From: a virus
Strand: one strand, 5' to 3'
Length of the DNA: 64,000 bases
UHGV virus genome: UHGV-0214148
Numbering within the stretch: the first letter of the stretch is position 1; each line of letters opens with the position of its first letter. This document shows positions 27,649 to 47,632 of this stretch, piece by piece. Under the pieces are notes generated by a model. It was not told the DNA's origin and made no database searches. It saw only the letters and a list, made by a program, of their open reading frames with translations. The translations under genes and the position numbers were made by a program.

Positions 27649-27674
27649 ACCCTACTCCTAGTCAGGAGTAGGGT
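27649..27674 (-). terminator. stem-loop terminator, CCCTACTCC/GGAGTAGGG stem family
   Basis: ACCCTACTCC / GGAGTAGGGT stem; same stem as hairpins at 46993 and 47611; A-rich plus-side flank. Confidence 0.55.
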
Positions 27675-27679
27675 AGGTG

Positions 27680-28339
27680 TTACATACGGGTAACTGAATC
27701 CCAGTAATCACGAAGATATTCTTGGTCTTCAGGATCTTTTGGCGTAGCCGGAATATGGCCGTCAAACTCAAACGGAATCACAGACAGAACATCCGCAATC
27801 TCGTAACGCTCGACTTCCAGTTCAACTTTCACCCAGTCACCGACGCTGGTACCGCTACGCATCTCAGTGAGGAGATCGTTAAAGTCACCCGAAACTTCAA
27901 TTGCGGGGTGTCCGGTGGTGATACTGAAAATATCAATATCCCAATGCTTAGCACCTTTATCGGCTAATTCACCCGGTTCTAAGTGAATACGTTTCACCAG
28001 GTGCGCCAAATAACCGTCCTTGTAAAAAGAGAGTGCAGAACTAATACCGATATCCGAATTCTCTTCAACCTTTCCGTCCAGGAATTTACGCTTAAGCGTT
28101 AGCTGTGCTGTACCGTCTTCTTTAATACGGATACGGCGACGCCCACCTTCTATCGGCATGAGAATGTCCATGAACATCTTAGCAGATTGTGCGTGGAGCC
28201 AATCCCATCCCGCTTGCGTAGGTTTAACCCAGACGCAATATTCCTTTTCCACTTCGCGTTTAATGGATTCGCCCGCAACGCGAATAACCTCTTCTTCCTG
28301 CGCTTTTTCCAATTGCGCAAGGGTATCGAATAATCCCAT
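27680..28339 (-). CDS. hypothetical protein
   Basis: 219-aa ORF followed by a terminator hairpin. Confidence 0.55.
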   Translation of the reverse strand: MGLFDTLAQLEKAQEEEVIRVAGESIKREVEKEYCVWVKPTQAGWDWLHAQSAKMFMDILMPIEGGRRRIRIKEDGTAQLTLKRKFLDGKVEENSDIGISSALSFYKDGYLAHLVKRIHLEPGELADKGAKHWDIDIFSITTGHPAIEVSGDFNDLLTEMRSGTSVGDWVKVELEVERYEIADVLSVIPFEFDGHIPATPKDPEDQEYLRDYWDSVTRM

Positions 28340-29181
28340 TAGATTAATCCCATACTTTCACTGACGCTCGTAATGTCGAACGTTGTGTCGTTAAAGTCGA
28401 TGTTTTCTACAATAGAAACCACCAGATTAGGAAGCCATTCTGAATGGGGTGGTGTAATAACCCGACCGTTCATAACGTAGTAATGCAAGAACGGTAATCC
28501 CATCGAATGACAGTACGATAACACATTACCTAAGCAGCTTCCGTCAAACTTCAAGAGTTGGAGTTTACGCAATAATGCGTTTTGAAATGCGCCGCTCGCG
28601 TAATTGCTAAACTCGCCAGGCCGATAATCCGTGCCCCCGTAAATACTCGCCTTTAATCGCCGACCGCGTTGTATACATTCAGCCCCAGTCAGGGTGCGTA
28701 ATAAACGGATGTCAGGATATTCAGTTTCCAAACGACCCAAAGCGTTTATTCCGTAACCCTTGTAGAACAGATAGTCTACGATCCTTAAATAATGATAGTA
28801 GCCTTCTAACGTTAAAAACTGACCGTGAATTGTGTCGAATTTCGCACCGTTAGGTTGCGCGTAGAAGTTACTGATCATTTTCCCTACGGTAGTACGACCG
28901 TTAGAATAAAGGTTAAGATGGTTGATACCATCAGTAAAAGGGAGTTTTTCGGGTAACGCACAAACGTAGCCTAAACGACGAAGGTATAGGACATAAACAA
29001 AGCGCTCATCAGGAGTAAGCACGATGTTTGACGCGTTAACGTATCCATTAGGATTATTTTGGCCAGGTTGATAACCCAACGTTAATGCCAGAGCGTGATT
29101 GTCTTCGCCCTGACTTTTGATCTTCTTTAATACGGAACGCAGTAATTGTGGTTCGGACATAACCGGCCTCTTAAATTGCAA
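28339..29181 (-). CDS. hypothetical protein
   Basis: 280-aa ORF, coupled to neighbours. Confidence 0.55.
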   Translation of the reverse strand: MQFKRPVMSEPQLLRSVLKKIKSQGEDNHALALTLGYQPGQNNPNGYVNASNIVLTPDERFVYVLYLRRLGYVCALPEKLPFTDGINHLNLYSNGRTTVGKMISNFYAQPNGAKFDTIHGQFLTLEGYYHYLRIVDYLFYKGYGINALGRLETEYPDIRLLRTLTGAECIQRGRRLKASIYGGTDYRPGEFSNYASGAFQNALLRKLQLLKFDGSCLGNVLSYCHSMGLPFLHYYVMNGRVITPPHSEWLPNLVVSIVENIDFNDTTFDITSVSESMGLI

Positions 29182-30445
29182 AATAGTCTTCCACGATTTT
29201 ATCGGTAGACTGGTAACTTACACTACCTGCAGCAATCACGTAATTACGTTTCTCGGTGGTCAGTAGCGCCTGAATCGCATTTACGCCTGCATAGGTGTAA
29301 AGTTTAAGTTCAGTCATTTCTGGCGTGATGTTTTTCGCTTTGTCCCATTTTGCATCTAATCCTTTAAATAACGTTAATAGACGAGTGCCATACGTTTTGA
29401 AACTAACACCGGGTTCAACCCGAAGGTTAGCCATAAGGTTCTGGATAACGGTGGTTGCGATCTGAGTCCCTTGCCCCGGTTGCAGTTTATCCAGATAGTA
29501 TTCCGTTGAATCCAGATTACCTGTCGCTGCTGCCTGAATCATCAGCTCGCCGTACAGTACCTCTTTCGCTTGCGCATCGGTAATCGCTTGAAGCATCGGT
29601 TCGATTTTAGCCGGTAAACCATAACTGTTCAGTTTGGTAGACAGGCCATAAATCAGCGCTGAAGAGGTATTAATGTCTAACGTGGAGAAACTGTTGCTGC
29701 CTTTAAAGCTGTTAATCAGGTTATCGATGGCTAGGAAGTCGTCCAAGTCTTTGTAGCTGTCGAAAGTATGCTGTACGTCATCAACGATCGAGGTGATTTG
29801 ATAACGCATACTGTTGACTTCGGACATAAACCCGTTGACTTCTTGGCTAACTTCCGAGGGGAGTTTAGCCAGTTGCCCAGCAATGTTCATCGTCCCTTCG
29901 AGACGTTTTTTCACCGAGTTAAAGTCAGTACCGATACCTGATAAAACAGAGTCGGTTAAGCTGCCGATGCTGTCCCACCCTTTATTTAACAGTTTCCCCA
30001 TTCCACCCGGACTTAGGTAGTCTAACGCTTTTAGGCCATCTTCATCCTTTTTCTTAAAAGGTTCAGAAACGTCACGCTTTTGTGGGTCGAGGACAGGAAG
30101 CGTTTCTTTGGTATTAGATGCAAAACCGGGAACCTTTTGTCCTGGAGATACACCGGAAGCCGAACTCCCCGCAGTCTTACTTCCCCCAACACTGGCGGTA
30201 TCGCTACCGCCAAAAAGGTTACCAATTTTGCTGGTCAGTTCGTTGCCGCCGCTAATCAGTTTGTTGAATGTTTCACCCGCACGTTCTGATAATCGGTTGA
30301 CGCTATCGACCGTGCTTTTAATACCACGCTCCGCATTCTCCACCGTCGATTGTACGCGGTTTGCGGCGTTCTTTGCCGTATTAACGGAATTATCGATTGC
30401 TGACTGACCTTTATTTATCTGACTGGTTATTTGGTCGATTTTCAT
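29171..30445 (-). CDS. hypothetical protein
   Basis: Track ORF 29171..30472 begins at a TTG; the internal ATG at 30445 has a GGAG SD and is preferred. Low-complexity Ser/Gly/Thr-rich N-terminal half. Confidence 0.5.
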   Translation of the reverse strand: MKIDQITSQINKGQSAIDNSVNTAKNAANRVQSTVENAERGIKSTVDSVNRLSERAGETFNKLISGGNELTSKIGNLFGGSDTASVGGSKTAGSSASGVSPGQKVPGFASNTKETLPVLDPQKRDVSEPFKKKDEDGLKALDYLSPGGMGKLLNKGWDSIGSLTDSVLSGIGTDFNSVKKRLEGTMNIAGQLAKLPSEVSQEVNGFMSEVNSMRYQITSIVDDVQHTFDSYKDLDDFLAIDNLINSFKGSNSFSTLDINTSSALIYGLSTKLNSYGLPAKIEPMLQAITDAQAKEVLYGELMIQAAATGNLDSTEYYLDKLQPGQGTQIATTVIQNLMANLRVEPGVSFKTYGTRLLTLFKGLDAKWDKAKNITPEMTELKLYTYAGVNAIQALLTTEKRNYVIAAGSVSYQSTDKIVEDYFAI

Positions 30446-31256
30446 TCTGGTCTCCAATTTGGTATTCGTCAAGGTTTACCGTGACCTGAACTTCGTAGAT
30501 TTTATTGTCTTTCTGACGCCTTAAGGTCAGAAGGATTTCGAAACTACGAACATCAATTGCCTTGAGTACCCTCATAAACCATTTCCAGGAAAACTTCTTT
30601 TTTAACCTTAGATTGTGCTGCATGTTGTGCCGCAAATCATTTCGTTTCGACGGCGTCTGCTCACAGTTAGCAGGATCGTTAACGAAGTTTGTGGAAAGAC
30701 GGTACCACCAGTCCGCATTCATTTTCATGTTTGCGAAGATAGTCCAAGTTAGCCGAGATAACGGATGTACCATCATCTTTGCGGTCTCACCACAGTTCTG
30801 GAAATAACGGTTCAATTGCGCAGTTGCAGACTCTTTAGGTCGTTCGTCGTTATCTTCGAACAAATCCCGAGCGAGATCTTCACGCACGCGTGTGGTAATT
30901 TCAGATACGGTTTTTGTTTTGAAGTGTCCTCGGTAAGTGGTTACACAAATCCGCAGTGTCTCCACTCCGGTAATCACCAACCCTTCTGTAAAACCTCGCC
31001 AGGTAAGATCGACAGGTAGTGCAGGGATGTTACCTGAACTCAGCTTCGTGGAGATACGTTGTATTCGATCGTCCATCGTTGCTTTTGAACGTGTTTTAAA
31101 TTCTGGAGACAGAATATGTTTGGCGACGGCGAGTTTATAATCCGAAGGCTTCCATCCGATCAATTCTTTATAATTCCAATATAGTGTTTGAAGTGGTCCG
31201 CCTGCACGTTCGTCTTCAGCGTCCACGACCACACTTACTTTTTTGCTATCCATCAC
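30411..31256 (-). CDS. hypothetical protein
   Basis: 281-aa ORF. Confidence 0.55.
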   Translation of the reverse strand: MMDSKKVSVVVDAEDERAGGPLQTLYWNYKELIGWKPSDYKLAVAKHILSPEFKTRSKATMDDRIQRISTKLSSGNIPALPVDLTWRGFTEGLVITGVETLRICVTTYRGHFKTKTVSEITTRVREDLARDLFEDNDERPKESATAQLNRYFQNCGETAKMMVHPLSRLTWTIFANMKMNADWWYRLSTNFVNDPANCEQTPSKRNDLRHNMQHNLRLKKKFSWKWFMRVLKAIDVRSFEILLTLRRQKDNKIYEVQVTVNLDEYQIGDQNENRPNNQSDK

Positions 31257-31286
31257 ATCACCTTGTTACAAGGGGTTACTGGTTTA

Positions 31287-31835
31287 TTAAATAGGACGTT
31301 CTAAAAGGTAGTGTTCAATCAACGTTTCCAACTCCCGGAATAAATGCGCAGTTTGATTTACCAGCGCTTTGTCTTCGTCGGACTCCGGTTTAAGGAACGC
31401 TGATTCATAGGGTTGAATTAGCGCGAGTAATTTACCCAGCTTATAAGCGGCAACCTCAGGACTGGACGTCCCAAAATAAGTGTCTAGCCATCGGTATTCC
31501 GCCAAGTCGTTTCGTTTATTTAAAGCGTCAGGTAATGGTAGCCATTCGATTGAACTCCTGTTAATTGCTCGTTGGTATTCATTAATGAGAAATGCCAAAC
31601 GTTGATAAACGAGGTCAATGTTATTAATACGCAATTCGAGGAAACCGCGAAGGCTGGGACGAAAAGGTTCTTCATTTATGTTTAAAGGCAACGTAAGCAA
31701 TTGTAAGCCGGTAAAGACTCTGACATAGGGGTTGTGGGTGTTCTTATGGAACTCCTGCTTCAGAGACTCTCTGAGGGCTTTTAAACGATTATTCTCTAAC
31801 CGTTGTTTAAAACGAGTTATTATTCCTGTTAACAT
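31287..31835 (-). CDS. hypothetical protein
   Basis: 182-aa ORF; AT-rich motif 26-45 bp upstream of start. Confidence 0.55.
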   Translation of the reverse strand: MLTGIITRFKQRLENNRLKALRESLKQEFHKNTHNPYVRVFTGLQLLTLPLNINEEPFRPSLRGFLELRINNIDLVYQRLAFLINEYQRAINRSSIEWLPLPDALNKRNDLAEYRWLDTYFGTSSPEVAAYKLGKLLALIQPYESAFLKPESDEDKALVNQTAHLFRELETLIEHYLLERPI

Positions 31836-31860
31836 AATTCACTCCTAAAGAATGTCTCAC

Positions 31861-31880
31861 GTAGATAATATCTGTCTGAC
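31861..31880. promoter_or_regulatory. AT-rich promoter-like motif (GATAATATCTGT variant) in divergent intergenic region
   Basis: Shares the ATAATATCT core; equidistant from divergent starts at 31835 and 31907. Confidence 0.3.
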
Positions 31881-31906
31881 TTCTTTTTGAAATTGAGGTA
31901 GTAAGA

Positions 31907-32371
31907 ATGGCTGACGAAGAAGTGAAATATCAGGCGTTTGATGGAGATGTGGACGACGAAGAATCGCTTCTCCGCCAAACGCAACAAGCCCGTGTACGGA
32001 TTGTGAATCTCATCTTAGACGATCCTCAAGCACACAAAGACTTGAAAACGGTAGACCGGCTGGGGTCTTTGCTTAACGACGTTGATAAACAAATCATTTC
32101 CAAACGTCGCGTCGCTGCTGCACAGAAAAACAGCGAAGCTAACCAAGATTTGGCGAATGCACTTAATAGCATCCTCATGCAACGTGGCAATATCAAAATA
32201 CGTCGTCACGATGAGGAAATCGAAGAAACCCAGGGCTACCAGCCCCCCGTTCCTGTTATTCCTGATGTTGAAGTAACAGAAGGGGAGCTGGCACCAGTAG
32301 GTGAACAAATCGACGTTAAGTCCATTATGACGGCGGCGTTTGCACGTCCTGAACAGGGCGAGCAAGACTAA
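31907..32371 (+). CDS. acidic hypothetical protein
   Basis: 154-aa plus-strand ORF, divergent from 31287..31835; Asp/Glu-rich. Confidence 0.5.
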   Translation: MADEEVKYQAFDGDVDDEESLLRQTQQARVRIVNLILDDPQAHKDLKTVDRLGSLLNDVDKQIISKRRVAAAQKNSEANQDLANALNSILMQRGNIKIRRHDEEIEETQGYQPPVPVIPDVEVTEGELAPVGEQIDVKSIMTAAFARPEQGEQD

Positions 32372-33047
32372 ATAAAGCGGCATCTCGTGGGTCGACACCG
32401 ACCCACTCTGCCATAAACCGGATATGTTCCTTAAACGGGTTAACGCCGTCTTGTTTGATTTGTTCAACCAACACTCCGGTCAGTTCTGGTGTGAGCATGG
32501 CAGGGTGTGTGATGGTAAAGCTCGGAATCGGTTTTTTCAAGTGTGTGGCGTTAAGCTTAATCCACTCGAACCAATCGTACATTATCCAGCAATCCCACGC
32601 CAATGACAATCTCCCCGGTGTGAGATCTTCTAACGACCAAGACACCAATTCAACTTGTACGTTATTGTAGTACATCCGAAACAGATTCAAAAAGGCTTGA
32701 AGTTCTTCGCCTGTTAAATCCGTATAAGGCCACGTATTAATGGTAAGTGTGGGTTTTTCAATTGGCGAATGCATTTCGATTTCAAGCAACATACACTCGA
32801 ATTCGTTTTTCATTGTTGCCAATAATTCAGTAGGCTGCGCATTAATCAACGCGCGCTTATCCCGCTTCCGCCACTCTTCATCCCATTTTTCAAATCCGAG
32901 TACGCCAGCCCAAGCTTCTGTATAGCGACGACGATAAACGTCGTAGTCTAGCAATGCTAAGCTTTCAGGCTTAACGGCTTTTACCCAACCTAAACGCGTA
33001 TCAAATAACGTATCAATATCGATTAAGAAACGCCGAGATAATCTCAT
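32325..33047 (-). CDS. hypothetical protein
   Basis: 240-aa ORF; 3' end overlaps the convergent gene 31907..32371 by 47 bp. Confidence 0.5.
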   Translation of the reverse strand: MRLSRRFLIDIDTLFDTRLGWVKAVKPESLALLDYDVYRRRYTEAWAGVLGFEKWDEEWRKRDKRALINAQPTELLATMKNEFECMLLEIEMHSPIEKPTLTINTWPYTDLTGEELQAFLNLFRMYYNNVQVELVSWSLEDLTPGRLSLAWDCWIMYDWFEWIKLNATHLKKPIPSFTITHPAMLTPELTGVLVEQIKQDGVNPFKEHIRFMAEWVGVDPRDAALFSLARPVQDVQTPPS

Positions 33048-33712
33048 GACGGATGGCCTATGTTGTTACCGATATGCATCGCTTTTAGGTACGCCGACCA
33101 CGTACGTGTTGCTTTAGAACTCGTTCGCTCCGCTCCAGGCAAATCAATACGCCCTTTACCGGTTTGGCGCAGTGATTGATAGAAAGCACGTTGTAGTGCG
33201 TCGTTACCACCACGCGCCCACAAGAACTCTTTCAGTGTCCAGTCGTGACCATCGGAATACATGATGTATGCTTCTGGGAAGGACACCCCGGATGCTTTGG
33301 AAGGTCCGACGACTTGACCGGAGAGTTTATCGCGAACTTTGTCGTTTTTCGCAACCGCCATTTTCTTTTCTTGCATCTGTGTCTGACGACGGACAGGCAA
33401 GCGTAAGACTAAGTGAGGGTAACGAGTACGGTGATAGACACCCGTTTTTGGTTCTGTTAACCAGAGTCGTTGCTCCAGGTTTACCCCGAGAATTTTGCAC
33501 ACCTCGATATTGCGCAGGTGGTCAATTTCGACTTTACTTCCCACCGGGTTGTAAATAGGCAAACCGTTACGAAGTCGGTTAAACTGTTCGTCGGTCATTC
33601 GCGCGAAGGCTTTCTTCGCGGCTTCGGCATTAATGCCAGAAGGGTCTACCAACTTTAAGATTTGTAAGGCGTAGGCTTCCGCCTTTTTACGCCGCGCTGG
33701 TTCGAGTTTCAT
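33044..33712 (-). CDS. hypothetical protein
   Basis: 222-aa ORF, coupled. Confidence 0.55.
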   Translation of the reverse strand: MKLEPARRKKAEAYALQILKLVDPSGINAEAAKKAFARMTDEQFNRLRNGLPIYNPVGSKVEIDHLRNIEVCKILGVNLEQRLWLTEPKTGVYHRTRYPHLVLRLPVRRQTQMQEKKMAVAKNDKVRDKLSGQVVGPSKASGVSFPEAYIMYSDGHDWTLKEFLWARGGNDALQRAFYQSLRQTGKGRIDLPGAERTSSKATRTWSAYLKAMHIGNNIGHPS

Positions 33713-33986
33713 TGTCTACCGCCTTACGTAAATTGGATAACGTTTCTGCTTCAAGCAGGTCAATCCAGTAGCTGATAGCTTCCGTGTTTTCAGGAAGTTC
33801 GGAACGTACTGGCGCATACCCGTAACGTACTAATAGATTCGAGTAATACTCAGCGACCTTTAAACAAAAGGATTCCAGATCGGGAAACGGGTGAGTGAAG
33901 GCTTCACGAAATTCGGCCGCTGTTTCTAAATTAACACTTGCCAATCCTTCACTTAAGCGTTCCACAATCTCCGTTTGATAACGCAT
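33687..33986 (-). CDS. hypothetical protein
   Basis: 99-aa ORF with AAGGAGT SD right after a hairpin. Confidence 0.5.
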   Translation of the reverse strand: MRYQTEIVERLSEGLASVNLETAAEFREAFTHPFPDLESFCLKVAEYYSNLLVRYGYAPVRSELPENTEAISYWIDLLEAETLSNLRKAVDNETRTSAA

Positions 33987-34000
33987 GATGACTCCTTAGG

Positions 34001-34024
34001 TCGGGTAGGGTAAACCCTACCCGA
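34001..34024. terminator. stem-loop (TCGGGTAGGG / CCCTACCCGA) with T-run
   Basis: 10-bp perfect stem followed on plus by TTTATTTCTTTTT; sits just upstream of the SD of gene 33687..33986. Confidence 0.4.
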
Positions 34025-34030
34025 GCCTAT

Positions 34031-35527
34031 TTATTTCTTTTTCGTCAGGAACTTCGGTTCTAGTCCATCGACAGCCATACCCAGAATAGTACGTGCAGTC
34101 AGTGTACGTTTACCACCTTTAGTTTCCTGGTCTTTAAACATCCAGTATTCTACCGTGTTGTCCAGAATTTCATTCCAGTCCCACTTCTCGTCAATCAGTT
34201 TGTAAATCTCACCCATGCTGAGATGATACTTCATTTCAAGACGATGGTAGTTGTTTTGCATATACGCAATTGCCGCAGTGATTTCTAAAGCGCGACGTAA
34301 GCGTGCGTTATCAGAAATCATGTCGCGGATTGTCGTGCGTTGGAATTTCACACCAGGTAGAATGTCCAGTTCTTTGATGGAGCCGCCACTACCGCTTGAT
34401 GTGAAACCAAAGTCTGACTTCTTCAGCGTGTCACTTAAATAGTGCCACAGGCTCAGGTGATATAACAGACCCATTTCCTGAGAGAAGATCATCTGAAATT
34501 TCACACCGGTGTGACCACCCTTCGCACGATACTGGGTAAAGGTGATAATCTTCAAGTCGTTTACCGACGCATTCATCGCTTTAGAACGTGACGTCGGATA
34601 AAGTTCTTCGTTAACACCGGTCTGTGCGTTATAGCTCTGGTCTTTCTTCAGTTCCCCTGATTTCGTCGCGACAATAAAAGAGTTTGTTAAGAAGCTAAGC
34701 TGACGGCGAGGAATACCTGCGAATTTTAGATCGTCGTTGGCGTCGTCGAGAATTTTCGCATTTGCTTTTTGTGCCTGTCGACCACCCGCCATCGCTTTCC
34801 CAGAGTCATCGGCCATCTGTGCCACGAAGCCCATGTAAAAACCGCCGCGTGCAAACGCAGACGGCCAGCGGCTCATCATATTCGATTTTTGCAGCGCATC
34901 GTGGGCGTTCAGGATGTTCTGATCAGAATCCCCGATATCCGTTTTTGCGTGCTTGTCTTCCAGCGAACTGGAATGCCATTCTGACAGGGAGTCGATAGAA
35001 TAAAGCCAGGGGTCCAGGATTTCTTTTAACTTGCGACGAACCGGATCGGGGAACGGTGTTACACGGGTTTTACCAGACATATACTGTTTGAAGCGTTTTT
35101 CAACTTCATCACGAATATAATCACTGTAATACTGTTCCCCAGGCATTACGTCAGAACCGACCAGGTTATAACGACCTTCGTGGATAAGCTCCAGTACAGA
35201 TGTTCCGTCGTCGATACCGTTGGCGTTCATGGCAGAGATGTACCCAGTTTCTAAACGATCGAGGGCAGCGGACACTTCTGTATCGTACTTAGAACCCCAC
35301 TCTGCTTTATAACGTTGCAGGATTTGGAAGATACAGAAATCTAACAAGGTGGATTTAAAAGTGTTACCGCGACCTGCGAAACCCATGATGTGGGCAAAAC
35401 CACCGTTAAGGTAGTACAAACCATCTTCACCTTTTTCGTAGTTACCTAAGGCATGATCCATGATGGTGTAAACGTTAAAACGTGGACGAATTACTTCACC
35501 GATAACTTGCTTAGTTGGGCCTGCCAT
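34031..35527 (-). CDS. P-loop protein, possible RecA/UvsX-like recombinase
   Basis: 498-aa ORF; GGFAHIMGFAGRGNTFKSTLLDF...RYKAEWGSKYDTE resembles the Walker A region of phage UvsX (GG..LAGPSKSFKS...RQY...YDSE, from memory). Single-motif evidence. Confidence 0.4.
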   Translation of the reverse strand: MAGPTKQVIGEVIRPRFNVYTIMDHALGNYEKGEDGLYYLNGGFAHIMGFAGRGNTFKSTLLDFCIFQILQRYKAEWGSKYDTEVSAALDRLETGYISAMNANGIDDGTSVLELIHEGRYNLVGSDVMPGEQYYSDYIRDEVEKRFKQYMSGKTRVTPFPDPVRRKLKEILDPWLYSIDSLSEWHSSSLEDKHAKTDIGDSDQNILNAHDALQKSNMMSRWPSAFARGGFYMGFVAQMADDSGKAMAGGRQAQKANAKILDDANDDLKFAGIPRRQLSFLTNSFIVATKSGELKKDQSYNAQTGVNEELYPTSRSKAMNASVNDLKIITFTQYRAKGGHTGVKFQMIFSQEMGLLYHLSLWHYLSDTLKKSDFGFTSSGSGGSIKELDILPGVKFQRTTIRDMISDNARLRRALEITAAIAYMQNNYHRLEMKYHLSMGEIYKLIDEKWDWNEILDNTVEYWMFKDQETKGGKRTLTARTILGMAVDGLEPKFLTKKK

Positions 35528-36706: not shown

Positions 36707-36736
36707 TTACCCCTAGACCACACGGTCTAGGGGTAA
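36707..36736. terminator. bidirectional terminator between convergent genes
   Basis: 13-bp stem TTACCCCTAGACC / GGTCTAGGGGTAA with A-run before and T-run after. Confidence 0.65.
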
Positions 36737-37666: not shown

Positions 37667-38593
37667 TTAATTGTGGGGTACGTAGCCACGGACAAATGTA
37701 GGTGGAATCCAACAAAGTTTTCTCTTTCTTTCACCATTTCTAGGGCCGACCCAATATCTGCGCCAGTGTGCGCGACGGATGTGGGCAGCCTTAGCATGTT
37801 TGATACCTTGCATGGTTTTCAAGTCAGTGTTAAACCCTTTTAGATAATTCACTTGTCCTGGCGTGATATCTATCTTAACATCGCGTTCACGAGGTTTAAC
37901 GTCGTAACTAATACTACCGTTCTTTTTGATTTCCTTGAACTTAATATCATTAAAAGACTCCCTGTAATTGGGCGGGATTAGCGTACACAGAAATATCATC
38001 GAAGTAGCGGCTTTGGCCAGAGATAACCATAGCATCTTTTCTTGTTCGGTCCGTACGCCAGTTGTATAATCGATTTCAACAAGCCCGTTTCCAACACTAC
38101 ATATCTCTAACGAGCAGGTGGCGATTGTGGTAACGCCTTCTGTTAACCCGTAATCAGTATTTGTAGCGATTATAATAAACCTTCTTTTCCCATTTTTTCG
38201 ATAGCCGAGAAAGAAAGTCTCATCCTCTTTACCTACGTCGATTGCTACAGTCCATGTGGGTATAAAGTCCAACCATTCTTCAGGGAATTTACTGGGCATC
38301 TCAGTCTCGAAAACAAGTTCTCTAAGTGCTTGGTTGGATATTAAGGAAGCACCACCGTATAGCCATCCAATTGCCAATGTTTGAGCGTGAAGGGAACGGG
38401 GATCTTTGAGACCTAACTCAGCGTCGTAAGGTATAAAGGCATTGGTTAAATGGTTACGATTCTTTTTTATCCATTTCGAGACAGGATTTTCCTTTATTCG
38501 GTTTTCTTCCATGACATTTTCAAGATGCTGAGACCCCATTTGTCTAAGGCAGTCTTTAATACCTTTTACTTTTTTACTTTTGTACAAATACAT
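37667..38593 (-). CDS. hypothetical protein, paralog of 36742..37641
   Basis: 308-aa ORF; shared internal blocks (LGLGWQYAA / LAIGWLYGG) and C-terminal AAHIRRAHW motif. Confidence 0.6.
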   Translation of the reverse strand: MYLYKSKKVKGIKDCLRQMGSQHLENVMEENRIKENPVSKWIKKNRNHLTNAFIPYDAELGLKDPRSLHAQTLAIGWLYGGASLISNQALRELVFETEMPSKFPEEWLDFIPTWTVAIDVGKEDETFFLGYRKNGKRRFIIIATNTDYGLTEGVTTIATCSLEICSVGNGLVEIDYTTGVRTEQEKMLWLSLAKAATSMIFLCTLIPPNYRESFNDIKFKEIKKNGSISYDVKPRERDVKIDITPGQVNYLKGFNTDLKTMQGIKHAKAAHIRRAHWRRYWVGPRNGERKRKLCWIPPTFVRGYVPHN

Positions 38594-38652: not shown

Positions 38653-39141
38653 TTAGTCGATTTTGACGTAATCAGGATAATTAGCTTTTAGCCACTCCCA
38701 TAGTTGCAGAGCAAGTTGGTTTTCGTTACGCTTGATGATTTCTACGATTTCGTTCAAGAGAGAGTCTTCAACCCAAATCCGGGTATAAAATTTTTCCCAT
38801 TCCGGTTCTGTATAAGGGACTAGCGGAGTAGGGAATCGACCCATGTGGTACGCATCAGAAACTTTCTTTAAGAACTCGTTGCGACCATGGCGTAGACGTT
38901 GCCGAACGTCTGTTTCTGTCATGCGCTTGCTTGATGGATCGAAGAAGTCAAGTATGATAAATATGTATCCAAATAAGCTCTGAGAAGAAAAGTAGGACGC
39001 GGCGTAGTCCGCCATCCAGGGAGTGTCTACAACCAACGGAGTCAACTTTTCTTCAATTTCTTTTCTTACACGTGTTCCGTTATTGAGAAATTCATGTACG
39101 AAATCGGTGTCACGAATATCGAAGTTATGATTTAAGTTCAT
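38653..39141 (-). CDS. hypothetical protein
   Basis: 162-aa ORF. Confidence 0.55.
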   Translation of the reverse strand: MNLNHNFDIRDTDFVHEFLNNGTRVRKEIEEKLTPLVVDTPWMADYAASYFSSQSLFGYIFIILDFFDPSSKRMTETDVRQRLRHGRNEFLKKVSDAYHMGRFPTPLVPYTEPEWEKFYTRIWVEDSLLNEIVEIIKRNENQLALQLWEWLKANYPDYVKID

Positions 39142-40951: not shown

Positions 40952-40973
40952 TTTAATAACTCCAATGGTGTTA

Positions 40974-41656: not shown

Positions 41657-43170
41657 TCAAGCTCCTTATCCGTCAATATTCGTTTGTTTGAATAATAGCC
41701 GCACCACAACCCATGATATTTTTCCCCGATATAAACCAACGCATATTCGATATACTGCCGTTCTGGACGCCGTACCGCCACGTAGAATCGTCCTTCTGGT
41801 TCTTTCATACGGTTGATTTCCGTACGCGTCGGTATGTCGATACCTCGAGTAAGGATAGTTTTAACCTTGTTTTTGCTACCAGGGATATGGATGGTTACGT
41901 CAAAACCTTTATCTACGTTACGATAAAAGTCTTTCTTCGGCTTACCTTTCTCATCGTAAAGCAGGTCAGTAATGTCGTTCATTACGACTGAGTTTTTCCC
42001 CTCCATGGCATCGCGTAACCAACCTGCAAGCTCATCACGAATCGTAATGCAGCGATAAGACAATAACGCGGGACGAAGAATTCGTGTAATCGAAAGATCT
42101 TCAAACATCCACAGGTTTTTGTCTTCGCTAAAATGCATCCGATCGATAGGAATACCGTTAGCTGCGGCTTCTGCGAACTTTTTACGCTTTACGAATAAGT
42201 TAAATACAACGGCGATGGGATCAAATTGACGTAAACGGGGCACCCCTTCCCACGCTTTCGCAGAGTGGGTATTTACTAACTCGTATACGTTATCCCACGG
42301 TTCTTTGGTAAACATTACGCAGAATTGTGCGTCTGGAATGTACTTACCAACGAAGACGATATCGTCCTTCTGTTTTGCATGGTTCCCACCGAACATGTAA
42401 TAAAGTTTATTACCGTTAACCGTAACCGTGGGATGGGGTTCGTTCACCATCGGGTAACAGAACTTCGTAACACAGATATCGGGAAAGGCAGACAAATTGA
42501 CACCTTCACCAACAACTTCTGGTTGCTGATCTTCCTCAGGCATCTCGTCTTTTGACCAATACGGTGTATAGTCTAGCCCATCGCCTCGTGCCGAGATACT
42601 TGAACCCTTCCGTGCTAACTCGTCGGCACGTTCGTTTCCATAGCGTCCTGAGTGCCCTTTAATTTTAAGGACACGAACACCTTTCCCTTCTTTCTTTAAC
42701 CGCTGTTTAACCTCCCACATCCGTTGGATTAATTCCAAGTTCGCAATAGGCGTACCGTCAGCACGACGCCAACCGCGTGCAGCCCAACCATCAATCCAAT
42801 CGTTATACGTGTTGACAACGTAAGATGCGTCGATATAGATAACATAGTTTTTGGCAACGAAAGGTGCGTGTTCGAAAACGGTCAGGAGAGCCACGAGTTC
42901 TGCAACGTCGGAGTGTGACATTTTTGGTACAGGCACAACACCGTCAATAAACTCCACGGTTTCAGGTAAAGGTGGAAGTTTTTCATCCTTGTTTATCTGG
43001 CGGTATCCTGACGTCGTAATCCCCTCGGGAATAGAGGGATGGCGATAAACCCGACCATCCTCAATCGCTTCACGATTAAATAAGTATCCATGAATCCCCG
43101 CTCCTGTACCGAGCGGGGAGGTCAAATGGCTACCATCCGTGTAAATTACTGCAACATCAACGTTCTTCAT
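41650..43170 (-). CDS. RNase H (RNase HI-type) domain protein with about 300-aa C-terminal extension
   Basis: 506-aa ORF; VAVIYTDGS ... YVIYIDASYVVN ... KGHSGRYGNERADELARKG match RNase HI catalytic motifs. Confidence 0.8.
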   Translation of the reverse strand: MKNVDVAVIYTDGSHLTSPLGTGAGIHGYLFNREAIEDGRVYRHPSIPEGITTSGYRQINKDEKLPPLPETVEFIDGVVPVPKMSHSDVAELVALLTVFEHAPFVAKNYVIYIDASYVVNTYNDWIDGWAARGWRRADGTPIANLELIQRMWEVKQRLKKEGKGVRVLKIKGHSGRYGNERADELARKGSSISARGDGLDYTPYWSKDEMPEEDQQPEVVGEGVNLSAFPDICVTKFCYPMVNEPHPTVTVNGNKLYYMFGGNHAKQKDDIVFVGKYIPDAQFCVMFTKEPWDNVYELVNTHSAKAWEGVPRLRQFDPIAVVFNLFVKRKKFAEAAANGIPIDRMHFSEDKNLWMFEDLSITRILRPALLSYRCITIRDELAGWLRDAMEGKNSVVMNDITDLLYDEKGKPKKDFYRNVDKGFDVTIHIPGSKNKVKTILTRGIDIPTRTEINRMKEPEGRFYVAVRRPERQYIEYALVYIGEKYHGLWCGYYSNKRILTDKELEC

Positions 43171-43172
43171 TC

Positions 43173-43907
43173 TTAATCCCTGGTTAATTGATCACGAATC
43201 TGCGGCGCAACATACTCGCCCGTTTTCAGTTCTTCGTGACAGGCTTTGGCGCGTTCAAACCCGTATTGGCGAGTGACCAAAGCGAGGTGGTAAATACGTG
43301 CCGTGGTGTAGGCTTCTTTTGCTGCATCCCACATTGCATGGTGCTCAAAAGCGGGCTTACCGCGTGTCCAGTAAATTTGCTCTACGGTTAGGTCAGGCTC
43401 GAACCCAAATGCAAAGGCTAAACGTTCTGCGGTACGATCGCTATCCAGTGCACTGAATTTACGGAACTTCCCTGGCGGAATATCACATTGTGCGAATGCG
43501 TTCATGAAAATCGGCGCATCGAAGTCAGGACCACGCATGGTAATAACAAACTCGTGTTTTGCGGTGATCTCCCCGAGCCATTTTTGCATCGCCCACAGCG
43601 CGTCTGGCAATGCTGTTGTCCCACCCCATGCCTCCGCATAAGCTTCACGAGACGGTGCGTATTCGGGTTCGCCTTTACCTTCCCACCAACCGACGGTTTG
43701 TGGGTCTTCGTGGAAAATGGCTTTTGCTTTAGGATCGTTAGGATCGATCCTGATGTATGAGGAACCGACCATTTTCAATGTAGGGACGTCAAAAGCCACT
43801 AAACCCGCACTTAACAGATAAGCATCGGGACGTAATGATTTGGTTTCAGCATCAGCGCCAATAACCAGCGTCGGAGTGTACGGGGTGACAATTTTTGGGT
43901 AGGTCAT
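43173..43907 (-). CDS. DEDDh-type 3'-5' exonuclease
   Basis: 244-aa ORF; LVIGADAETKS (Exo I D-x-E) and FEHHAMWDAAKEAY (Exo III H-x4-D). Confidence 0.65.
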   Translation of the reverse strand: MTYPKIVTPYTPTLVIGADAETKSLRPDAYLLSAGLVAFDVPTLKMVGSSYIRIDPNDPKAKAIFHEDPQTVGWWEGKGEPEYAPSREAYAEAWGGTTALPDALWAMQKWLGEITAKHEFVITMRGPDFDAPIFMNAFAQCDIPPGKFRKFSALDSDRTAERLAFAFGFEPDLTVEQIYWTRGKPAFEHHAMWDAAKEAYTTARIYHLALVTRQYGFERAKACHEELKTGEYVAPQIRDQLTRD

Positions 43908-43962
43908 GTTGAATTCTCCTGTTAGTCTACATTAAAATAGTTACAAACGTTAAAAAGAAAGA

Positions 43963-43993
43963 CCCTCCTGTACCACGAATGGGTACAGGAGGG
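43963..43993 (-). terminator. stem-loop terminator (CCCTCCTGTACC / GGTACAGGAGGG)
   Basis: 12-bp stem; A-rich plus-side flank; immediately downstream of gene 43998..44456. Confidence 0.55.
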
Positions 43994-43997
43994 GGTG

Positions 43998-44456
43998 TCA
44001 GTACAAACACGATGTCAAGTATTGGTTGTACGAATCGAGTAGTGTCTGACGGTCGGAACGGTAATTCCACAACAAATTATTGAGTTTACGCGATAGGTCA
44101 CGGCTAATCTCCTGGGGCGTTAAAGAGCTTTCGTCAAGAGATAAGCGTTCAGGTACAACATGTAACTTCGGTAACTCATAACGCTCACAAAGTGGAGCCA
44201 GCATTGGTGGGCTCCAGCCACGTTTAACGGCTTGTTGGTTTAAATTTCGGGTGTAGACATAAACGTAGTAAGCATAGGTGTTGACATCCGCAACATACTC
44301 ACGCATTGCATTATTGTCAATTTTCCAATTCACCATTATCGGTGGTGTAGGAGGAAGTTCCAGTGGCCTATAAGCTGGACGTTTAACTTCGTCGCCGTAG
44401 CTATTACTCACCAACCCCATGAACACCATCATGATGAATAACAGCATTTTCATCAA
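43998..44456 (-). CDS. secreted Pro-rich protein (candidate outer spanin-like)
   Basis: 152-aa ORF; N-terminal signal-like peptide MMKMLLFIMMVFMGLVSNSYG then RPAYRPLELPPTPP; no lipobox Cys. Confidence 0.5.
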   Translation of the reverse strand: MMKMLLFIMMVFMGLVSNSYGDEVKRPAYRPLELPPTPPIMVNWKIDNNAMREYVADVNTYAYYVYVYTRNLNQQAVKRGWSPPMLAPLCERYELPKLHVVPERLSLDESSLTPQEISRDLSRKLNNLLWNYRSDRQTLLDSYNQYLTSCLY

Positions 44457-44960
44457 TCACTCCTTAGAAGACGTTAGCGTCTTTATGATCTCCTGTCGAA
44501 AGCTGTTCGCATTTAAATTGCCAACAGGTCTCGCCGAAGCCTCTTTACGTTGTTCTGGTGTTGAAGCTGGATTAACAGGAGTTTCTGGTTTTGTCGAAGA
44601 CAGATCCTTCGCCGTACCGCTCGCTTTCGATGAATTAAACGTGCTTTCATATGGCGGTTTCTGGCCGAGGCAAACGAAGAGCCTGTCGTATAACTTCCCA
44701 TTATCTTCTTTTAGTTTATCTCGATCTTGTTTCATCTCTTGGTAAGACTGCGACATATAAGTGTCATGAGACTGCACTGCAACGAGCGCGTGAAACTGTT
44801 GTACATAGGCGTAGGAGACGAAGCCAGAATACGACAACAAGATCGTGATGATTAAAGTCATTATCTTGCTTGCTCTTGATACGTTTTCTCCTTCTCCTGG
44901 TTTAAATGCTTCCATTAACATCTGAAGGAAGAACGGAAGCACTTTAAAAAATGAACCCAT
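44457..44960 (-). CDS. membrane protein with periplasmic coiled-coil (candidate inner spanin-like)
   Basis: 167-aa ORF; TM segment IMTLIITILLSYSGFVSYAYV then charged helix (EMKQDRDKLKEDNGKLYDRL); stop abuts the next start. Confidence 0.5.
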   Translation of the reverse strand: MGSFFKVLPFFLQMLMEAFKPGEGENVSRASKIMTLIITILLSYSGFVSYAYVQQFHALVAVQSHDTYMSQSYQEMKQDRDKLKEDNGKLYDRLFVCLGQKPPYESTFNSSKASGTAKDLSSTKPETPVNPASTPEQRKEASARPVGNLNANSFRQEIIKTLTSSKE

Positions 44961-44985
44961 TGCTCACCTCGGAGTATTTTTAATT

Positions 44986-46359
44986 ATGTTAGACTTACAA
45001 GGTTTTATTCAGATACCGGCACTGTTTGACAATCAGGACGGCGTCACCGCTCCGGTGGGCGAGCTGTCGGATTTGACACTCTCGTACGCGAAGAGTAAAC
45101 AGACGTTTACTAAAACCAATTTGCAAGTTCAATTGGTGACTTTTACGTCTAAACGAGAAAAACAGACGGTTGTTGTACCAGCCGAATTTTCTGATCATAT
45201 TCTAACCGTTTCTCAATGGATTTACCAGCAAGCCATCTTGGGGAATCTGAGAAATGACGAACTCGAATTCCAGCGCCTGTTATTAGGCCAATTCCAATCA
45301 ACCATTTCTGGTGTTCAGTCTGGTGCGATGATACAGACGAACAGTAACTGGTTCCCACGTTGGGTGAGCTGGAAATATGAAGTAACGGCAGATCAAGTAC
45401 AAGATGACACTGATGTAGATAATCAGATCATTGTTTGGTTCTCGGATGAAGACTTCGATCAAGATTACACAGGGTTCGAAATCGAAGTACAGATGCCGAT
45501 TTCACCAATCGACACATTTTTGTCGACCAAGTCAGTCGTTGAAAAGGCGATGGAAGGGTTTAACCTTACCGAACACCATAAGAAAATCAATGAGTTAATG
45601 GCAGGGTTTCCTTACACCGCTATCCAAACCAACTACTATACTTGGCACGATCAAGAAAACTACGAGTCTACCTTAGTTGTCCCCATGTCGGTTATTATCT
45701 ACGGACGTGCGGGAAAAAACCCAACGAAAATAAAGCAAGCGTTGCGTGAACATATTCTCGCTAATTCCAGCTTTACTGTCCCTATCGGGGTAAAAGTATT
45801 TCCCGAAATTTTCACTACCACGAAATTTACAATTGTCCCTGGATGGAAAATTCGTGGGATACCCAATGAGGAAGATGTGGCGGCGCTTTATTCCCCCATC
45901 CTTCCATATGATTTCTGGGTCAAAGCTATCAGTCGGTTTGGAGAATGGGCAGACCAGACGGTAGCAGAAAGAAATACTAAAACGATCAGTAAACCTACAA
46001 CAGACGTAACTGACTTACCAACAGTTTATAAATCATTAAACTGTGTTGTAATCAGTGGGCCGGAAAACGATACGCGGAAAGCGACCTTACACGAAACTAT
46101 CCCGGATTATGCGTTAATTGCGACGACTAACCCTGATATTGCGCGTATGTCGAAAACAACGACCGAATGGTTGGCGTTATTTTTCCAGGCACTTATTGCT
46201 GCGGAAGAATACCACCCGTATCAAACCAGCTTGGATATTGTAAAACTGGTCGATGAGGCTGACCCTGATAACTACTTCTGGGTGTTTGAATACGACAACG
46301 TAGAATATCGTATCCTGTCTCGGAAAGCGAAATGGTACACCGAGTTAGACGAGGAGTAA
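44986..46359 (+). CDS. hypothetical protein
   Basis: 457-aa plus-strand ORF, divergent from 44457..44960 across 25 bp. Confidence 0.6.
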   Translation: MLDLQGFIQIPALFDNQDGVTAPVGELSDLTLSYAKSKQTFTKTNLQVQLVTFTSKREKQTVVVPAEFSDHILTVSQWIYQQAILGNLRNDELEFQRLLLGQFQSTISGVQSGAMIQTNSNWFPRWVSWKYEVTADQVQDDTDVDNQIIVWFSDEDFDQDYTGFEIEVQMPISPIDTFLSTKSVVEKAMEGFNLTEHHKKINELMAGFPYTAIQTNYYTWHDQENYESTLVVPMSVIIYGRAGKNPTKIKQALREHILANSSFTVPIGVKVFPEIFTTTKFTIVPGWKIRGIPNEEDVAALYSPILPYDFWVKAISRFGEWADQTVAERNTKTISKPTTDVTDLPTVYKSLNCVVISGPENDTRKATLHETIPDYALIATTNPDIARMSKTTTEWLALFFQALIAAEEYHPYQTSLDIVKLVDEADPDNYFWVFEYDNVEYRILSRKAKWYTELDEE

Positions 46360-46362
46360 TGA

Positions 46363-46986
46363 ATGGCTACGCGTTTACCACTCCAGGTACCAGTCAACAC
46401 CACGGGACTGTTCAAAGTAAAAACACCATTTACTTTAGCCGAGACGGTCATTTATACGGTAGAAGCGTCACGTACCTTCCCAGATTTAGTACGTCAGAAT
46501 ATTGACGTTTATAACTCGTATTACCAGCCAGTAGGGCTAGGACGTGAAGAATATTTAGCAGATGCGAATGTTAGTGCGTCGATCCTGACATTTAAATCTC
46601 GGGACGGTCAAGTTGTATACATACCTGACACCTACCTGGAATCATACCCAGGTTTATCCGGGATCACGTATCAACGAAATGTGTTAGTGGTAGATTTGGC
46701 ACTGGTACCGGATTACGTGAAAGTGTCGTCTATAACAAAAGACGTTTCAGATATTCTCACGCATACACTAGGGATTGAGCCGAAAGTTGAAATCACAACG
46801 CTCGAGTATGAAGGGAAGGTAACGGAGGAACAACACTTGCAGATGGAAGCGGCACGAAAAAATAAAATTCGTGAATCTATTCCATTAGGTGAGAAAGTTG
46901 CTGCGTTGACAGAAGAGAACAAAAAATTAAAAGAGTTAAACAACCAAATGTTAGAGATTCTTAAAGCTAACGGGTTAGTTAACTAA
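46363..46986 (+). CDS. hypothetical protein
   Basis: 207-aa ORF, coupled to 44986..46359; followed by bidirectional terminator. Confidence 0.55.
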   Translation: MATRLPLQVPVNTTGLFKVKTPFTLAETVIYTVEASRTFPDLVRQNIDVYNSYYQPVGLGREEYLADANVSASILTFKSRDGQVVYIPDTYLESYPGLSGITYQRNVLVVDLALVPDYVKVSSITKDVSDILTHTLGIEPKVEITTLEYEGKVTEEQHLQMEAARKNKIRESIPLGEKVAALTEENKKLKELNNQMLEILKANGLVN

Positions 46987-46992
46987 AAAGAT

Positions 46993-47018
46993 TACCCTAC
47001 TCCTTCGGGAGTAGGGTA
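46993..47018. terminator. bidirectional terminator, CCCTACTCC/GGAGTAGGG stem family
   Basis: TACCCTACTCC / GGAGTAGGGTA stem, TTCG loop, A-run before and T-run after; between convergent genes. Confidence 0.65.
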
Positions 47019-47027
47019 GCTTTTATT

Positions 47028-47579
47028 TTAAATGTCGACTTCTAGTTTACGGTAATCGATGACGCCTTGAGCAATCATAGCAGCAACATCGTTCCAGGTA
47101 CGAAAAATGAAGTAAACTGTGTCTCCGTTTAAAAAGATGTTAGATTCTTTATCCGGGAAATCATCTTCACTGAGGTAGTAGTAGGGTTTGTCGAATGGGA
47201 AGTCGCGCTCATCAGAGGAACCAAGTACCGCATAACGATTGCCACAATCAAACAGAATCTTCCAACCAGACATTTCACTATTAGCGTCAATACGATCGTC
47301 GATTTCAACGGTAATAGGAGAACGATCAAGAAAGCTGATTGTAACCTCCCCGTTATGCTGTCGTTTAAATCGACGAATATCTGTAGGCACAATTTCAGAT
47401 GCTGCTATAAGGGAATAAAGTTGTGTTACGGTGATCTTTTTGTAAACACTATCGCCATCCCACAAACGATCAAATAAGAAATTAGCCAGGAAATTTATAT
47501 CCTTTAAACGTGTGCGGAAAACAGAACCACGGCGAATACCGTAAGCCAGATGAGTTAAATATTCAGACGATGGAAACAT
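47028..47579 (-). CDS. hypothetical protein, paralog of 47641..48573
   Basis: 183-aa ORF; N-terminus MFPSSEYLTHLAYGIRR parallels MTFPSEVIYELANTLRRR; conserved SD context. Confidence 0.55.
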   Translation of the reverse strand: MFPSSEYLTHLAYGIRRGSVFRTRLKDINFLANFLFDRLWDGDSVYKKITVTQLYSLIAASEIVPTDIRRFKRQHNGEVTISFLDRSPITVEIDDRIDANSEMSGWKILFDCGNRYAVLGSSDERDFPFDKPYYYLSEDDFPDKESNIFLNGDTVYFIFRTWNDVAAMIAQGVIDYRKLEVDI

Positions 47580-47610
47580 TTTAATACTCCTAAGGTGGAA
47601 AAAGAATTAA

Positions 47611-47632
47611 CCCTACTCCCGGAGGAGTAGGG
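47611..47632 (-). terminator. stem-loop terminator, CCCTACTCC/GGAGTAGGG stem family
   Basis: Same 9-bp stem as 27649 and 46993; between the paralogs 47641..48573 and 47028..47579. Confidence 0.55.

Follow-up and report, generated by a model that had tools for sequence, protein, structure and literature searches.

A shared stem sequence among predicted terminator hairpins of a phiKZ-related giant phage

The locus

The stretch of virus genome UHGV-0214148 analysed here (64,000 nucleotides, in its whole length called the window) contains three hairpins built on one stem, CCCTACTCC-loop-GGAGTAGGG, each lying close behind the end of a gene. Copy 1 is found between two co-directional genes, 27680-28339 and 27248-27616, on the minus strand. 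Copy 2 occupies the convergent junction of gene 46363-46986 on the plus strand and gene 47028-47579 (henceforth B) on the minus strand, and copy 3 separates B from its neighbour on the same strand, gene 47641-48573 (henceforth A). The original prediction, made without database searches, took the three for terminators with identical stems and with loops TAGTCA, TTCG and CGGA. Direct reading of the sequence confirms the stem and the loops, and the starts it assigned (27649, 46993 and 47611) are essentially right, if off by 0-2 nt. I argue below that the hairpins are probably Rho-independent (intrinsic) terminators belonging to a multi-copy palindromic family, and that the identity of their stems is probably a property of that family and not the trace of a local duplication.

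A virion protein of the window (44986-46359) is 84% identical to its counterpart in Erwinia phage phiEaH2 (Erskinevirus) and 78% to that in Salmonella phage SPN3US. The window also encodes RNA polymerase beta-like subunits (5692-9858 and 9868-11487) and a 2388-aa tail-fiber-like protein. Judged by the virion-protein identities and the RNA polymerase genes, it belongs to the genome of a giant phage related to phiKZ and equipped with multisubunit RNA polymerases of its own, a relative of phiEaH2 and SPN3US. GenBank phages offer no close DNA match for the window, megablast of positions 46000-49000 giving zero matches. Over the available fragments the window shares 81-99% identity with three IMG/VR contigs (221-225 kb), and in the counts of copies that follow, the nearest IMG/VR contigs and the complete genome of phiEaH2 stand in for the window phage's own full genome.

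Anatomy of the three hairpins

Counting both strands, the window has seven occurrences of the 9-mer CCCTACTCC where 0.19 are expected, and none of 100 dinucleotide-preserving shuffles reached seven. Six of these matches are the arms of the three perfect hairpins. The seventh, GGAGTAGGG at 38825-38833, is an unpaired arm within an open reading frame (ORF, 38653-39141), has no complementary partner nearby, and is probably there by chance.

Copy 1 has its core at 27650-27673, with the loop TAGTCA, and flanking pairs extend it to a 12-bp stem at 27648-27675 with the loop AGTC, which on the minus strand reads TACCCTACTCCT-GACT-AGGAGTAGGGTA. The stem begins 7 nt past the stop codon of 27680-28339, and the U-rich tail that follows it (27636-27647, minus strand, TTTTCATTTTTT) gives way to the ribosome-binding site and start codon of 27248-27616. 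The predicted RNA fold has an energy of -20.6 kcal/mol (z = -4.5). Copy 2, which can be read on both strands, has its core at 46995-47016 with the loop TTCG, and flanking TA pairs make of it an 11-bp stem at 46993-47018, TACCCTACTCC-TTCG-GGAGTAGGGTA. T-rich tails follow it in both directions, GCTTTTATTTTA on the plus strand (47019-47030) and ATCTTTTTAGTT on the minus strand (46981-46992), the folds come to -24.4 and -21.2 kcal/mol on the plus and minus strands, respectively, and a consensus terminator scan is positive on both. Copy 3 (47611-47632) has a 9-bp stem and the loop CGGA, and on the minus strand it reads CCCTACTCC-TCCG-GGAGTAGGG, followed by the tail TTAATTCTTTTTCC (47597-47610). It begins 9 nt past the stop codon of A and folds with -18.3 kcal/mol (z = -3.8); its tail is the weakest of the three (TTAATTCTTTTT), and the scan is still positive.

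Taken together, the copies have perfect G+C-rich stems of 9-12 bp, 4-nt loops that include the stable UUCG/UCCG type, and gaps between stop codon and stem of 7 nt (copy 1), 9-12 nt (copy 2) and 9 nt (copy 3). The z-scores of their folds range from -3.8 to -6.3, with none of 200 shuffles equally stable, and all three are flagged as terminator-like by the scan. Every sequence feature that would be asked of a terminator is thus present, in agreement with the original prediction. Copies 1 and 3 are followed by nothing more than a T-tract, a ribosome-binding site and an ATG, and no promoter is recognisable there.

The similarity among the copies ends with the stem. When the flanks of all copies were aligned in both orientations, as the original prediction had suggested in looking for extended homology, the invariant positions were the 18 of the stem and five isolated ones scattered elsewhere, with nothing contiguous past the stem. 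The flanks are A/T-rich and not homologous.

The genes beside the hairpins

The product of gene A, of 310 aa, belongs to phrog_11818, a family of unknown function, and is fast-evolving. That of gene B, of 183 aa, is lineage-specific, and the gene is bracketed by copies 2 and 3. The two had been called paralogs, and so they are, if distant ones (25% identity over 191 aa, E = 4e-8); it is also true that a hairpin follows each of them, both genes ending 9-12 nt before one on the minus strand. However, the original prediction went on to read the identical stems as evidence of a duplicated gene-plus-terminator unit, and that reading does not hold up. B aligns only to residues 3-185 of A, the N-terminal half, so the 3' gene ends that adjoin the hairpins are not homologous, nor are the spacers from stop codon to hairpin (TTTAAATC and AATAAAAGC), and neither A nor B has a relative among the genes that flank copy 1.

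Where the window has A and B, phiEaH2 has one 408-aa homolog of A adjoining the convergent terminator, and copy 3 is absent from this single-gene locus. A tblastn search with B against 50,697 GenBank phage records gave no match; B is present in all four of the close relatives L020, L028, L044 and L051. The gene whose 3' end abuts copy 2 from the other side (46363-46986, plus strand) is a DUF7194 gene (phrog_3241), and the gene upstream of copy 1 (27680-28339, minus strand) falls in phrog_7768. Pfam found no domains in A, B or the neighbours of copy 1, and PHROGs only families of unknown function. Scans of the window for tRNA genes and with Rfam (at gathering thresholds) gave no matches.

The stem in other phages

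The stem is far from private to the window. A scan of IMG/VR for CCCTACTCC-N3-8-GGAGTAGGG found 81 loci, as against 8 for a control with the arms reversed. Of the 87 hairpins on the 80 loci that were tabulated, 50 sit on 25 contigs of 218-253 kb. The compensatory variant CCCTGCTCC/GGAGCAGGG, found at 19 IMG/VR loci, occurs on none of the contigs in that range of sizes. Homologs of phiEaH2 or window proteins are encoded on 60 of the 81 loci. A variant that differs by one base pair, TACCCACTCC, was found at 24 loci, of which 18 are on contigs that measure 200 kb or more, and it occurs four times in phiEaH2, three times in ChrisDB, and twice each in SPN3US and Pseudomonas phage EL. The exact CCCTACTCC stem is found also in Erwinia phage RisingSun and Ralstonia phage RSL2.

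The number of copies per genome is telling. Three close relatives of the window have six (the closest, of 225 kb), six and five. Three of the six in the closest relative are orthologs of the window copies, and the other three lie at convergent junctions beside unrelated genes; in all, four of its six copies are convergent and have no paralogs beside them. The unrelated genes that adjoin the stem in relatives encode the DUF7194 protein, a virion protein of 984 aa and a replicative helicase. The stem is therefore common in the relatives, mostly at convergent junctions and beside unrelated genes, and it extends to other genera, with no tie to the paralog pair, which is the very result that the original prediction had listed as a refutation of itself. 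Sorted by the junction at which they lie, the exact copies from IMG/VR and the three in the window are 40 convergent, 32 co-directional and 2 divergent, and a further 3 fall within ORFs. One might suppose that the palindromes mediate the inversion of blocks of genes, an idea that predicts as many divergent as convergent junctions; it was dropped, as only 2 of the 77 classified copies are divergent.

The complete genome of phiEaH2 gives a similar picture. There, 15 of 57 perfect T-tailed hairpins have ...ACTC(C) next to the loop. Its family stems are ACCCTACTCC (three times), TACCTACTCC (twice), (C)TACCCACTCC (four times) and single variants that include CTCCTACTCCC, CCTCACTCC and CCCCTACTC. 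The three main alleles are one base pair apart, and the opposite arm always compensates. Family members in phiEaH2 sit at convergent junctions more often (9 of 14) than other terminators do (5 of 32; Fisher p = 0.002). The window itself has three exact copies and one near copy among about 14 strong terminators. The near copy (21508-21533, TACCTACCTCC-TTTC-GGAGGTAGGTA) would be a bidirectional terminator at the convergent junction of 20920-21483 (plus) and 21541-22374 (minus), and in the relatives L016 and L026 a different junction has the same stem. Stems of the CCCTA/TAGGG type are found also at 18692, 34001, 36707 and 38628. All this runs counter to the claim that the other terminators of the window have unrelated stems. 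The sequences point to a family consensus, (C)TACC(C)(T)ACTCC / GGAGT(A)(G)GGTA(G), common to a broad set of phiKZ-related giant phages.

Orthologous junctions and compensated changes

If orthologous junctions are anchored on the protein whose 3' end abuts the hairpin, the exact CCCTACTCC stem can be followed over large distances. It is found after the DUF7194 gene in L036 (29-31% amino acid identity), after the 984-aa virion protein in L050, L054 and L031 (24-26%), after the replicative helicase in RSL2 and L061 (25-26%), and after E_208081 in RisingSun (27%). In phage EL, the gene for the 984-aa virion protein (24.5%) is followed by a one-base-pair variant, CCCACTCC.

Where the stem has changed, both arms have changed. 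The ortholog of copy 2 in phiEaH2 (at 101485) is CTACCTACTCC-cgaa-GGAGTAGGTAG, which differs by one compensated exchange of C-G for A-T and by a flipped loop. Since phiEaH2 has this hairpin at the same junction with a single gene, copy 2 predates the pair of paralogs A and B. Paired deletions convert CCCTACTCC/GGAGTAGGG into CCCACTCC/GGAGTGGG, with pairing kept. The ortholog of copy 1 in phiEaH2, CCCTCTCC-ttcg-GGGGAGGG, has one G.U pair on the sense strand, which fits an action at the level of RNA. Of the few hairpins with one mismatch and a T-tail on a single side, 8 have G.U on the tail strand, 3 have it on the opposite strand and 8 have a mismatch of some other kind; this tally of G.U against A.C mismatches is suggestive of a function in RNA, though too small to decide the matter. 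The hosts of the phages that keep the stem include Erwinia, Salmonella, Ralstonia and Pseudomonas, so the constraint on it is probably intrinsic to the phage, exerted for example by the phage RNA polymerase or by another phage factor acting on nascent RNA.

Inverted loops and lineage-wide alleles

Among relatives that are 80-95% identical in nucleotide sequence, the stems are unchanged while loops appear as reverse complements relative to the flanking genes. Such flips are seen at copy 2 (TTCG/CGAA and TTTTCG/CGAAAA), copy 3 (CGGA/TCCG), copy 1 (TAGACA/TGTCTG), the E_213974 junction (CGGA/TCCG and TTTTCG/CGAAAA) and the E_208081 junction (TCTCG/CGAGA), at least seven events at five sites of the family and one site outside it. 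The latter is a CCCCTAATCC hairpin of L028 (about position 9456) and L044 (about 4358), in the orthologs of the region just left of window position 49173, whose loop is AATC in one of the two and GATT in the other, and it indicates that inversion of the loop is not limited to the CCCTACTCC family. The loops of three separate hairpins are flipped between these two relatives. These inversions are best explained by template switching or recombination between the arms of a hairpin, a process that would also keep the palindromes perfect and would turn an insertion or deletion in one arm into a paired one.

A further regularity is that the allele of the stem goes with the genome. The window lineage has CCCTACTCC at the E_59535, E_101524, E_208081 and E_213974 junctions, and phiEaH2, SPN3US, ChrisDB and contig 3300011862 have CCCACTCC or CCTACTCC at the same four. 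The site of copy 1 has CCCTACTCC in the window lineage, CCCTCTCC in phiEaH2 and TTCCCCTAC in L065 and L070. That stem alleles track the genome rather than the junction suggests concerted evolution, and four or five identical double changes within one lineage point to the transfer of alleles between copies, that is, to gene conversion. A shift of the optimal stem for a whole lineage at once may explain them instead. At two other junctions the stem has been swapped outright: at 36707 the CCCCTAGACC of the window corresponds to CCCACTCC in phiEaH2 and to CCCTACTCC in SPN3US-like contigs, and at 59158 its GGTGGGGG corresponds to ACCCTACTCC in phiEaH2.

A family of terminators?

I propose that the three hairpins act as intrinsic terminators. 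Copy 2 would stop both of the transcripts that converge on it, that of the operon for the virion protein and the DUF7194 protein and that of gene B. Copies 1 and 3 would act on the minus strand, most likely attenuating rather than abolishing transcription into the next gene; termination there is likely to be partial because that gene starts about 35 nt later without a recognisable promoter. The identity of the stems would probably be kept by purifying selection on the stem sequence and probably also by homogenisation at the level of DNA, through exchange between arms and through gene conversion that carries a stem allele from one copy to another. The sequences show directly how the hairpins are built, the family with its spread and its preferred junctions, the flipped loops and the alleles that go with lineage; that transcription stops at the hairpins I infer from sequence, as I do the relative weight of selection and conversion.

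A more specific version of this proposal, offered as speculation and more doubtful than the proposal itself, is that the stem spells a terminator word, TACC(C)(T)ACTCC, which the transcription or mRNA-handling machinery of the phage reads on nascent RNA by its specific sequence. The word would have been retained at the same convergent junctions since before EL, RSL2, RisingSun, SPN3US and Erskinevirus parted ways, with its copies evolving in concert through gene conversion and its loops flipping back and forth through template switching from arm to arm.

Several facts sit uneasily with terminators of this kind. At copies 1 and 3 the next start codon is only some 35 nt away, with no promoter recognisable in between, and if termination were complete the following gene would be silent. 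In copy 3 the tail (UUAAUUCUUUUU) falls short of a canonical U-tract. It would be mechanistically awkward for a factor to read the sequence of RNA that is paired in a stem, and none is known to do so. ChmC, the known RNA-binding protein of chimalliviruses, shows no motif and binds near start codons (PMC11077065), and for both reasons was dropped as a candidate reader of the hairpin. The distant cases came from a search for the exact stem, and what they establish is recurrence, not how often the stem has been lost or retained. Among hairpins of the same loci that the search had not selected, 5 of 62 are variants of the family, so the family is a prominent subset of the terminators and not a general rule. 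Finally, the C-rich stem CCCCACTCC/GGAGTGGGG is frequent in unrelated viral contigs (52 loci), from which it follows that part of the raw count for such stems is background.

Other explanations of the shared stem must be set against this one. It could recur by chance, C-rich/G-rich stems being common in terminators, but nothing further speaks for this, and the seven arms found for 0.19 expected, the shuffles that never reached that number and the five or six copies per genome in three relatives refute it. Local tandem duplication has more to recommend it. Gene A would have been copied along with its terminator, and the second gene would then have lost its C-terminal half to become B, leaving copies 2 and 3 as descendants of one hairpin. 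The genes are indeed paralogous, their order on the minus strand (A, copy 3, B, copy 2) is the one expected, the phiEaH2 locus has one gene and one terminator, and the minus-strand tails of copy 2 (TAATCTTTTT) and copy 3 (TTAATTCTTTTT) are somewhat similar. However, the alignment of B to residues 3-185 of A means that a second, precise deletion is needed, and beyond the stem only the A/T-richness of the two copies is alike. At 25% protein identity, moreover, neutral DNA would have been randomised, so that something else must have maintained the stem, and the same force already covers at least four unlinked identical copies in the window lineage. The duplication is silent on copy 1, with its unrelated neighbours. 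It may be how copy 3 arose, though I consider that rather unlikely, and it would leave the shared stem unexplained.

The original prediction also allowed for a recombination-prone or mobile element or for the site of a specific RNA-binding protein. Some indirect support for recombination or for a binding site can be found in the recurrence of one allele at several junctions and in the frequent inversion of loops; nothing indicates a mobile element, conserved flanks and terminal repeats beyond the stem being absent. Suppose that the palindrome is a dispersed repeat through which adjacent genes are gained, lost or swapped, termination being secondary. A lineage-specific gene, B, is bracketed by two identical copies, one allele recurs at several junctions of a lineage, terminators have been replaced wholesale between genera (at the 36707 and 59158 junctions), genes for a UvsX-like recombinase and for an SbcC-like nuclease subunit are present, and there is a documented precedent in the terminator/promoter cassettes of T4-like phages discussed below (PMC4122927). 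Yet the conserved unit amounts to the stem and low-complexity A/T flanks, the three copies have no attached promoter and no target-site duplications, single-gene insertions or deletions relative to close relatives are not bounded by family hairpins, and the presence of most copies at the same junctions across genera speaks of conservation, not mobility. This makes the mobile palindrome very doubtful. Slightly less so, and still quite improbable, is a site read by a phage protein for some purpose beyond termination, be it stabilisation of the 3' end of mRNA, processing, export from the phage nucleus, or a DNA signal at convergent junctions. A model is at hand in the stem-loop of histone mRNA, which is read by SLBP. 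Such a protein would account for a stem kept in phages of Erwinia, Salmonella, Ralstonia and Pseudomonas at 24-31% protein identity and for the absence of the compensatory variant CCCTGCTCC/GGAGCAGGG from contigs of 218-253 kb, and a shared mode of action is invoked for the phiKZ motif by its authors as well (PMC10914365). But the loop varies freely in sequence, length (3-8 nt) and orientation, which argues against a protein that reads the loop or a dimer on a spaced DNA palindrome, one and the same genome can hold two or three alleles of the stem, and no candidate factor is known.

Two side observations concern the gene content and gene products just mentioned. L012 and L053 lack window gene 25449-25769 (minus strand, 106 aa), a one-gene insertion or deletion that is not bounded by a family hairpin; the gene is not a duplicate of the adjoining gene 25769-26077. 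L053 also differs in a variable block of genes, about 1.5 kb in the window (22985-24447) and about 0.5 kb, unalignable, in L053 (4677-5200), the rest being 91-93% identical. The UvsX-like recombinase and the SbcC-like subunit of a palindrome-specific nuclease are among the products of window 34031-35527 / 52640-55156, and both could bear on the dynamics of the palindromes.

Relation to known systems

The nearest parallel to the terminators proposed here is in phiKZ itself, where a conserved intrinsic-terminator motif, 5'-BCCYCCCCHWWDGGGRRGGBYTTATKYYGT-3', has been described (Putzeys et al. 2024, PMC10914365), and a similar motif is common to 59 terminators of 201phi2-1 (PMC11512511). As in those phages, the hairpins of the window form a multi-copy set conserved in sequence, not merely in shape, with a C- or pyrimidine-rich 5' arm, a G-rich 3' arm, a short loop and a T-rich tail with TTAT or TTTAT (at 46993, GCTTTTATTTT; at 21508, CTTTTATTT), and the genome that bears them is that of a phiKZ-related giant phage that would use its own RNA polymerases. 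The stem, however, is another one, TACCCTACTCC in place of CCYCCCC, and the published consensus BCCYCCCCHWWDGGGRRGGBYTTAT has no match in the window with up to three mismatches. A preference for convergent junctions, exact stems at orthologous sites, alleles correlated with lineage and inversions of the loop are not reported for phiKZ in the portion of that study considered here. The phiKZ sites have mapped 3' ends, and the window hairpins are known from their letters. They would nonetheless seem to belong with the conserved-sequence terminators of phiKZ-related giant phages, under a different stem word.

The promoter-early stem-loops (PeSLs) of T4-like phages (Arbiol et al. 2010, PMC2839356; Comeau et al. 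2014, PMC4122927) are likewise short conserved intergenic stem-loops repeated many times in the genome of a large lytic phage. They are proposed to be points of homologous exchange, and here a lineage-specific gene, B, is bracketed by two copies. But a PeSL combines its stem-loop with an early promoter and clusters with others in hyperplastic regions, whereas the three window hairpins have no promoter and most copies of the family lie at conserved convergent junctions between core genes. As for gains and losses of genes, B is bracketed by two copies and present in all four close relatives, and over the roughly 25 kb of close-relative sequence that was compared, the differences seen in L012 and L053 do not fall at family hairpins. 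Nor is there a likeness to REP/MITE elements in the copies, which show no conserved unit past the stem, no terminal repeats and no target-site duplications.

In their build the hairpins resemble the bidirectional Rho-independent terminators of bacteria: a perfect palindrome with A-tract and T-tract flanks, set between convergent stop codons and providing a U-tail for both transcripts. Bacterial examples, however, are individually unrelated in sequence, while here one stem is reused at many junctions and kept across genera. The inversions of loops recall the minute inversions of hairpin loops that Kelchner and Wendel are said to have described in 1996 in the non-coding DNA of chloroplasts, and the correction of quasi-palindromes by template switching that Ripley reportedly put forward in 1982. 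In those cases, too, loops flip between close relatives while the arms stay identical, but the settings are organelle spacers and mutagenesis assays in E. coli. I found no description of loop inversion in phage terminators, though no specific search for one was made. A full-text search of the literature for both arm sequences returned unrelated primers only, and neither a transcriptome of a phage of the SPN3US/phiEaH2 type nor a factor that reads such hairpins turned up in the literature. Conserved terminator motifs are so far known to have been mapped in phiKZ and 201phi2-1 only. The preference for convergent junctions, the exact stems at orthologous junctions across genera, the flipping of loops and the lineage-wide switches of allele seem not to have been described before.

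Other hairpins and promoter-like modules in the window

Some hairpins carry the words of the family inside out, with the G-rich arm first. They are found at 18692-18711 and 34001-34024 in the window and at 127119-127141 in phiEaH2, with arms GGGGGTAG...CTACCCCC, TCGGGTAGGG...CCCTACCCGA and CGAGTAGCCC...GGGCTACTCG, in which the GTAGGG/CCCTAC words appear in swapped order.

Three composite modules lie on the minus strand, at 563-697, at 59052-59177 and at about 63420-63519. The first two have, in order, a terminator hairpin, a T-run, an AT-rich box (...TTTCAGATATATATTACTTAGGTGAG...), a stem-loop in the 5' untranslated region, a ribosome-binding site and an ATG; in the last, the hairpin (63453-63481) comes after the AT-rich box. 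The boxes themselves, at 611-651, 59096-59136 and 63479-63519, look like the early promoter that is read by the virion RNA polymerase in phiKZ-type phages, and the stems beside them differ from those of the family. Ceyssens reportedly described the core TATATTAC of such promoters in 2014. The AT-rich box is 80-96% conserved in phiEaH2 (about 38260-38300, directly after a ACCCTACTCC hairpin) and in other distant relatives, and box and hairpin together resemble a terminator/promoter cassette of the PeSL kind. The genes that follow the first two modules, 173-562 and 58680-59051 (minus strand), are paralogs of each other (55% amino acid identity, E = 1e-46), and both start MKNELFKDPFVVLMI.

What the family may be good for

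No major view is changed by these results, and the three hairpins themselves are probably, as predicted, ordinary terminators. What they add is a second stem word among the giant phages, which supplies templates, wild-type and compensatory mutant, with which to ask whether the non-canonical RNA polymerases of these nucleus-forming phages read the sequence of a terminator or its shape. The family may also serve as a marker for the ends of transcription units in genomes of the SPN3US/phiEaH2 type and as a source of what are predicted to be strong bidirectional terminators. Finally, the inversions of loops and the switches of stem alleles would provide a natural example, in a lytic phage, of the dynamics of palindromes and of concerted evolution.

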